Shown here: positions 1 through 291 of the stretch, piece after piece | How the letters are laid out: each line of letters starts with the position of its first letter | Numbering within the stretch: position 1 is the stretch's first letter | NCBI RefSeq assembly: GCF_003334255.1 | Contig: NZ_QOWU01000272.1 | Origin: Escherichia coli | GTDB taxonomy: Bacteria > Pseudomonadota > Gammaproteobacteria > Enterobacterales > Enterobacteriaceae | Direction: 5' to 3' (one strand) | Length of the DNA: 291 nt | Position numbers and translations under genes: made by a program | The notes under the pieces: model-generated | Database searches by the model: none | Told to the model about the DNA's origin: nothing | The model's input: only the letters and a program-made list of their open reading frames with translations

Positions 1-1
1 G

Positions 2-193
2 TGCAGTGCCCTGGGAGTGGATGTCGGGTGCCATGCCACGCTGGTGCATTTTCCGGCCTGGCCGGCGGTGTGGCTGGCGCGTAATGATGACACCGGCTTT
101 CAGCAAGTGCTGGAACGTGCTGACTATCTGGCGAAGGAGCATACCAAAGCTCACTGCACCGGTGAGCGCAATTTTGGCTGTAGCCGGAGTTGA
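2..193 (+). CDS. 3' end of a protein-coding gene (63 C-terminal codons plus TGA stop); 5' part lies upstream of the window; product not identified
   Basis: Frame +2 is open from the window edge to TGA at 191-193. Translation: CSALGVDVGCHATLVHFPAWPAVWLARNDDTGFQQVLERADYLAKEHTKAHCTGERNFGCSRS*. Codon usage is typical of enterobacterial genes: all 5 Leu codons are CTG, both Pro are CCG, 3 of 4 Arg are CGT/CGC, and about 40 of 63 codons end in G or C. Amino-acid composition is unremarkable, unlike the overlapping frame +3. No start codon or RBS can be assessed because the 5' end is outside the window. Confidence 0.6.
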   Translation, partial: CSALGVDVGCHATLVHFPAWPAVWLARNDDTGFQQVLERADYLAKEHTKAHCTGERNFGCSRS

Positions 194-200
194 GCACGAC

Positions 201-210
201 TGGCGCGCCA
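201..210. repeat. Perfect 10-bp palindrome TGGCGCGCCA (contains GGCGCGCC) 8 bp downstream of the stop codon
   Basis: Read directly: positions 201-210 are identical to their own reverse complement. Biological role unknown. Confidence 0.5.
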
Positions 211-291
211 ATATCCGGCAAACCAAAAGTATGGGTTGTTGTCTGGCGGCAACGATGTATCCACTCGCCCACTGACTGTTTTTTACGTCAG

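Follow-up and report, generated by a model that had tools for sequence, protein, structure and literature searches.

A YagK/YfjJ-family island gene of Escherichia coli and the shadow ORF that overlaps its 3′ end

The window analyzed here, a stretch of 291 nt, is almost certainly the 3′ end of an unremarkable genomic-island gene of Escherichia coli that public records already annotate, followed by the start of the intergenic region downstream of it. Three long open frames cross the window: frame +2, open from the left edge to a TGA at 191–193; frame +3, open to a TGA at 273–275, with a GTG at 6 as its first start codon and a product of 89 amino acids; and frame −3, which is free of stops throughout. 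Among these, frame +2 is the reading frame of the gene, with its stop at 191–193 and residues 127–189 of a 189-residue YagK/YfjJ-family protein encoded within the window. The 89-codon frame +3 ORF is a run that by chance meets no stop in the +1 shift of a gene of fairly high GC content, and it extends 82 nt into the intergenic region. This division into a shadow ORF in frame +3 and a real gene in frame +2 had been offered by an earlier sequence-only reading; it is supported by the present analysis, all the independent tests agree, and nothing substantial stands against the frame +2 call. The correct frame is already in the public annotation, so that the call itself is known and changes nothing for the field.

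The stretch is common in the species. It is identical over its full length to many E. coli chromosomes and is present in 3,552 of 5,426 complete E. coli genomes, at a median of one and a maximum of four places per genome, roughly 5,500 copies in all. In strain ATCC 11775, the reference locus used below (L001), it occupies positions 5001–5291.

The frame +2 gene and its family

RefSeq places over the window a plus-strand CDS of 570 nt (WP_000221544.1, "inovirus Gp2 family protein"; L001 4624–5193), which begins 377 nt before the window, with a GGAG 9 nt ahead of its annotated ATG, and ends at window position 193 in frame +2. A RefSeq CDS in the same frame and with the same end is found in every allele inspected. 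The window thereby holds the last 63 codons of the gene (residues 127–189) and its TGA (2..193, plus strand), an assignment in which RefSeq, Pfam, the alleles and the codons concur. The protein matches the Pfam family PF11726 (YagK_YfjJ_C) from one end of the model to the other (residues 21–187 against positions 1–170 of 170, E = 4.8e-48). It likewise matches the phage family PHROG 25019 (7.7e-41), and the 63-residue segment that falls within the window is by itself enough to match the end of that profile (2.7e-8). No NCBIfam model matches the frame +2 protein, and the name given by RefSeq must therefore derive from Pfam.

The family is well populated. The exact 189-residue protein occurs on at least 1000 contigs, its 90% cluster has 3,421 members, and an HMMER scan of 1.84 billion representatives (at 50% identity) recovered 691 homologs at E ≤ 0.001, with 492 at E ≤ 1e-10. 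Full-length homologs mostly align up to query residues 187–189 and terminate no more than a few residues away, a minority carrying C-terminal extensions. The earlier placement of the real gene in frame +2 with its end at 193 is thus borne out by the RefSeq CDS, by the end-to-end Pfam match and by the 691 representative homologs.

Across 51 homologs of 31–49% identity, the invariant columns are E85, H94, H96, W126, A129, Y168 and K171, and the codons of A129, Y168 and K171 fall inside the window. Also encoded there is a conserved C-terminal tail, K175 ... R182-x-F-G185-C-S187 (146..184, plus strand), which ends two residues ahead of the stop and in which conservation is 90% or more at K175, R182, G185 and S187 (alignment A1). 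In these respects the protein is a typical member of the YagK/YfjJ family (PF11726), e.g., yagK of CP4-6 and yfjJ of CP4-57 in strain K-12, which are placed in the family by Pfam name. It covers the whole Pfam model, is of similar size (189 residues against about 190–235), has in common with the family the invariant E, HxH and YxxK residues together with the R-x-F-G-C-S tail, and appears to lie in the same setting, i.e., a horizontally acquired island, beside a small HTH regulator. No notable difference from the family was seen.

In E. coli the gene is multi-copy and mosaic, with a median of two and a maximum of nine places per genome, and the copy at hand is a single allele of it. A scan of one genome per species returned nothing beyond two short fragments of the gene (L003, L004), 94–96% identical, which lie on very short or low-coverage contigs of assemblies labelled as Paenibacillus tengchongensis and a Collinsella MAG and are most likely E. 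coli contamination. Diverged E. coli alleles accordingly served for comparison in place of cross-species relatives. The most variable part of the gene lies at window 24–123 (about residues 134–167), with 68–88% identity per 50-nt bin between conserved flanks, a mosaic pattern that suggests recombination between paralogous island copies, of which there are up to nine places per genome.

The overlapping frame +3 and antisense ORFs

Over-annotation of GC-rich coding DNA can, as is well known, stem from shadow ORFs, i.e., runs without stops that arise by chance in the alternative frames of real genes. The frame +3 ORF (6..275, plus strand; 89 amino acids; not a gene) overlaps the frame +2 gene at a +1 shift over 6–193 and is intergenic over 194–275. 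It came first in the mechanical ORF list because of windowing: the true gene begins 377 nt upstream, and the list shows it only from an internal GTG, as a fragment of 58 residues (17..193). The short window thus sets a trap, wherein a real gene that runs past the edge is under-ranked relative to a complete shadow ORF. As a matter of quality control, trusting the longest ORF within the window would give the wrong product and the wrong gene end (275 instead of 193) and would hide a well-populated protein family. The warning given earlier, that acceptance of this ORF would misplace both boundary and product, was therefore justified, the true end being 193 and the product a YagK/YfjJ-family protein.

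The alleles separate the two frames most directly. Seven diverged E. coli alleles, 88–98% identical over the gene, were compared. The 570-nt CDS and its TGA are common to all seven, and the ORF is intact, with identical start and stop, in all nine copies inspected. Frame +3 is interrupted by stops in four of the seven diverged alleles (L005, L006, L010 and L011), with frame +2 intact in each of them, and is unbroken in the window allele and in L007, L008 and L009. Variable columns, 60 in all, are distributed over the first, second and third codon positions of frame +2 as 19:14:27; the most variable position is therefore the second of frame +3 (27/60), as expected if it equals the third position of the real frame. 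The pooled Nei–Gojobori pN/pS is 0.41 for frame +2, 0.97 for frame +3 and 1.24 for frame +1, values drawn from seven distinct alleles that are recombination mosaics, such that the pairs are not independent and it is the direction that is consistent. Judged from these substitutions, frame +3 evolves neutrally.

For codon usage, 35 core genes of this genome (12,023 codons) supplied the tables, one for the true frame and one for each of the two shifted frames. For frame +2, the coding table is better than the two shifted-frame tables by 37 and 23 bits; for frame +3 in the region of overlap, the table for frames shifted by +1 beats the coding table by 25.8 bits. The comparison of codon adaptation with the host genome, which the sequence-only reading had proposed as a check, came out in the same direction, with a CAI-like index of 0.78 for frame +2 as against 0.49–0.54 for frame +3. 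The rare codons that it had noticed in frame +3 are there as counted (CGG four times and AGG, CGA and ATA once each), frame +2 having a single CGG as its sole rare codon, and the preferred codons it had seen in frame +2 are likewise present (CTG five times, GCG three, CCG two and CGT two). Its description of the frame +3 product as rich in Trp, Cys and Arg stands in kind, with five Cys, nine Arg and a Trp content about five times the 1.6% of the 35 core genes (P = 7e-4), but the number of Trp residues is 7 of 89 and not 8. The frame +2 segment, with four Cys among its 63 residues, is itself Cys-rich. One argument of the sequence-only reading failed: the high third-position G/C held to mark frame +2 is 63.5% in that frame (2..190) and 66–68% in frame +3, and GC3 was rejected as a frame discriminator since the higher value belongs to the wrong frame.

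The homology searches were as one-sided. The product of frame +3 belongs to no family in Pfam, NCBIfam or PHROG, and the exact sequence is not present among about 15 billion proteins. A search against 5.8 billion clusters gave ten matches, all of them chimeras or fragments of this same locus: six are frameshift or fusion chimeras, four of these with a PF11726 annotation, and the rest are short fragments from internal starts. Thus, when both translations are searched, homologs exist for frame +2 and none that is independent for frame +3, the opposite of the outcome that would have spoken for frame +3. Nor is the length of the ORF out of the ordinary. When the synonymous codons of the real gene were permuted and the intergenic bases shuffled, 35% of trials produced an uninterrupted +1 frame as long as the observed one, which measures 95 codons from stop to stop, or longer. 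In addition, 50 kb of core sequence from this genome contain 124 open stretches of that size against 41 annotated features. The frame +3 ORF is no more than chance gives, and no special explanation is needed for it.

It is nevertheless worth weighing whether 6..275 might be a genuine overlapping gene, perhaps young and strain-restricted, and read from the GTG at 6—a start which, as the earlier reading had remarked, is not an ATG—or from an internal start. We regard this as very improbable. The intact ORF in the window allele, L007, L008 and L009 would fit such a gene, as would the versions with internal starts that some pipelines call, one of 52 amino acids (P0002, "hypothetical protein", on 39 contigs) and one of 61 (P0003), and the tail of the frame (192–272) has a mildly positive coding score of 7–9 bits over 27 codons. 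That tail, however, lies in a conserved intergenic block (described below), and its preservation in five alleles is uninformative. The stops in the four alleles that keep frame +2 intact largely refute the overlapping gene; its pN/pS of 0.97 indicates no purifying selection in its own frame, its most variable codon position is the second, the shifted-frame model is ahead over the overlap, and the only ribosome-binding-like element upstream of the GTG is a 3-nt AGG, 9 nt away. Further, it matches no family, its length is that expected by chance, and its exact product goes unrecorded in the protein collections even though the window DNA, at 99% identity or more, is in more than 900 genomes.

The ORF is thus what it had been taken for, a shadow ORF, with no family, stops in four of seven alleles, a pN/pS of 0.97 and shifted-frame codons. 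It resembles typical shadow ORFs in its skewed composition (Trp, Cys, Arg and Met) and host-rare codons, and equally in its lack of conservation across alleles, lack of homologs and chance-expected length. It is unlike them in one respect, as it runs 82 nt beyond the real stop into the conserved intergenic block. In the alleles that keep the block, it appears better preserved than the usual shadow ORF because its tail lies there.

A second shadow ORF, absent from the earlier reading, lies on the opposite strand. The segment that fills the window (1..291, minus strand, frame −3) is part of an antisense ORF of 289 amino acids (L001 4618..5487) in register with the sense codons. Being the longest ORF at the locus, and exceeding the annotated gene, it could be put forward as the real gene or as a second one, but this is barely credible: it is shortened to 117–199 codons in all the diverged alleles, it spans the intergenic region, it is unannotated in every RefSeq record inspected, and the Pfam domain belongs to the sense frame. 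It exists because the sense gene is devoid of the codons TTA, CTA and TCA, which read as stops on the antisense strand.

The island and the downstream intergenic region

The frame +2 gene sits in what is seen as a degraded mobile island. Its neighbors within 5 kb include zinc-ribbon genes, a small HTH regulator, an IS66 element and the remnant of an Hha gene; no integrase was seen in the stretch inspected. The remnant, upstream at L001 3757–3879, is an Hha/YmoA pseudogene missing its N-terminus; the IS66 element, at L001 6631–8800, has a frameshifted transposase and is downstream of two zinc-ribbon genes. A preprint counts Gp2-like genes as likely members of the core set of integrase/AlpA-type islands (bioRxiv 10.1101/2024.08.29.610337).

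The rest of the window (194..291, no strand assigned) opens the 259 nt of intergenic DNA that separate the Gp2-family gene from a putative zinc-ribbon gene, the start of which would be at window position 453. Within it, a block at about 224–273 (L001 5224–5273), which extends to about window 365, is 98–100% identical in five alleles, the coding parts of which drop to 68% identity in single 50-nt bins. Since this block is conserved, the tail of the shadow ORF seems preserved in some alleles. The block is missing from the CFT073-type alleles L010 and L011, wherein unrelated sequence replaces everything after the real stop. The block may control the zinc-ribbon genes that follow, or may provide a site for the putative Rep-like protein discussed below. 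RefSeq annotates no feature in it, and Rfam gave no match at E ≤ 1 on 3 kb around the window. Folding of the 259-nt region on both strands (z-scores of −0.4 and −1.3) gave no sign of a structured RNA, and a promoter scan of L001 4400–5600 found no sigma-70-like site and no plus-strand terminator.

Two inverted repeats were seen in the window. One, a perfect 7-bp repeat, CACTGAC-N10-GTCAGTG, lies at 270–291 (to 293 in the numbering continued along L001, 5270–5293), with the frame +3 stop inside it. Its run of six T residues sits within the loop and not after the stem, and it is not a canonical terminator. The other, of 6 bp, GCTCAC-N7-GTGAGC, is in the coding region at 149–167. It was considered as a minus-strand terminator and set aside: it is the only such hairpin in the scan, which is no more than shuffled sequences give.

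Such surroundings raise the alternative that frame +2, though the right frame, belongs to a gene that is decaying within a cryptic island and now serves no function, neither frame giving a working product. The degraded setting, with its Hha pseudogene, frameshifted IS66 transposase and IS insertions, is in keeping with this, as are the variability of the C-terminal third (68–88% identity per 50-nt bin) and a pN/pS of 0.41, which is a relaxed value. The 570-nt ORF, however, is unbroken and keeps both its start and its stop in nine of nine copies, all seven family-invariant residues are kept, the pN/pS is well under 1 and the structural model of the protein is highly confident. Decay to a remnant is accordingly improbable, if less so than either of the rival genes considered above.

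A predicted HUH nuclease

In HUH enzymes, two histidines together with an acidic side chain coordinate a metal ion, and a tyrosine attacks single-stranded DNA and stays attached as a 5′-phosphotyrosine. The invariant residues of the YagK/YfjJ-family protein can be set against this scheme. The putative HUH motif, H94-Y-H96-LMLLV, lies upstream of the window on a predicted strand (93–102), with both histidines invariant. Downstream of it, on a predicted helix (156–170), is the candidate catalytic tyrosine motif YxxK, Y168-L-A-K171, which is encoded in the window (125..136, plus strand; Y168 at 125–127 and K171 at 134–136) and in which Y168 and K171 are invariant.

The predicted structure points in the same direction. 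An AlphaFold2 model from an alignment of 51 homologs has a pLDDT of 96 and a pTM of 0.91, and its fold matches HUH nucleases: among predicted viral structures (BFVD) there are 146 matches at E ≤ 0.001, the named ones being replication initiators of microviruses. A second, weak Pfam match of the protein is to REP_ORF2-G2P (3.3e-5). Foldseek against the PDB returned nothing below E = 0.001, and sequence searches of the PDB, both with the single protein and with a 51-sequence profile, found no match to any solved structure. Taken together, the model, the invariant residues and the weak Pfam match suggest that the YagK/YfjJ-family protein is an HUH (Rep-like) nuclease of the single-tyrosine type.

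The protein can be compared with a set of HUH enzymes comprising the Reps of parvoviruses, AAV, microviruses and CRESS viruses, RepB of pMV158, ORF119 of SIRV1, the Helitron transposase and TnpA-REP. Relative to the solved HUH proteins, it is without detectable sequence similarity; unlike the HUH Reps and transposases with a helicase or other domain attached, it carries none; and whereas those enzymes belong to plasmids, viruses and transposons, this predicted one is encoded in a chromosomal island. Searches of the literature for functional or biochemical work on YagK/YfjJ proteins, or on those named "inovirus Gp2 family", found none.

Were the prediction correct, E85, H94 and H96 would be the ligands of a divalent metal, and Y168, in the YxxK motif at 125–136, would cut single-stranded DNA via a 5′-phosphotyrosine link. 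The protein would therefore act on the DNA of its own island, in its replication or in its transfer after excision. A more specific proposal, which we put forward tentatively and think somewhat unlikely, is that YagK/YfjJ is an active stand-alone HUH nickase that starts the rolling-circle replication or single-strand transfer of an excised integrase/AlpA-type island.

The wider interest of the gene lies in this resemblance of yagK/yfjJ, a family of the y-ome, to a minimal HUH nuclease. If the nickase proposal is true, the very common "cryptic prophage-like" islands of enterobacteria would gain a replication or mobilization mechanism of their own.
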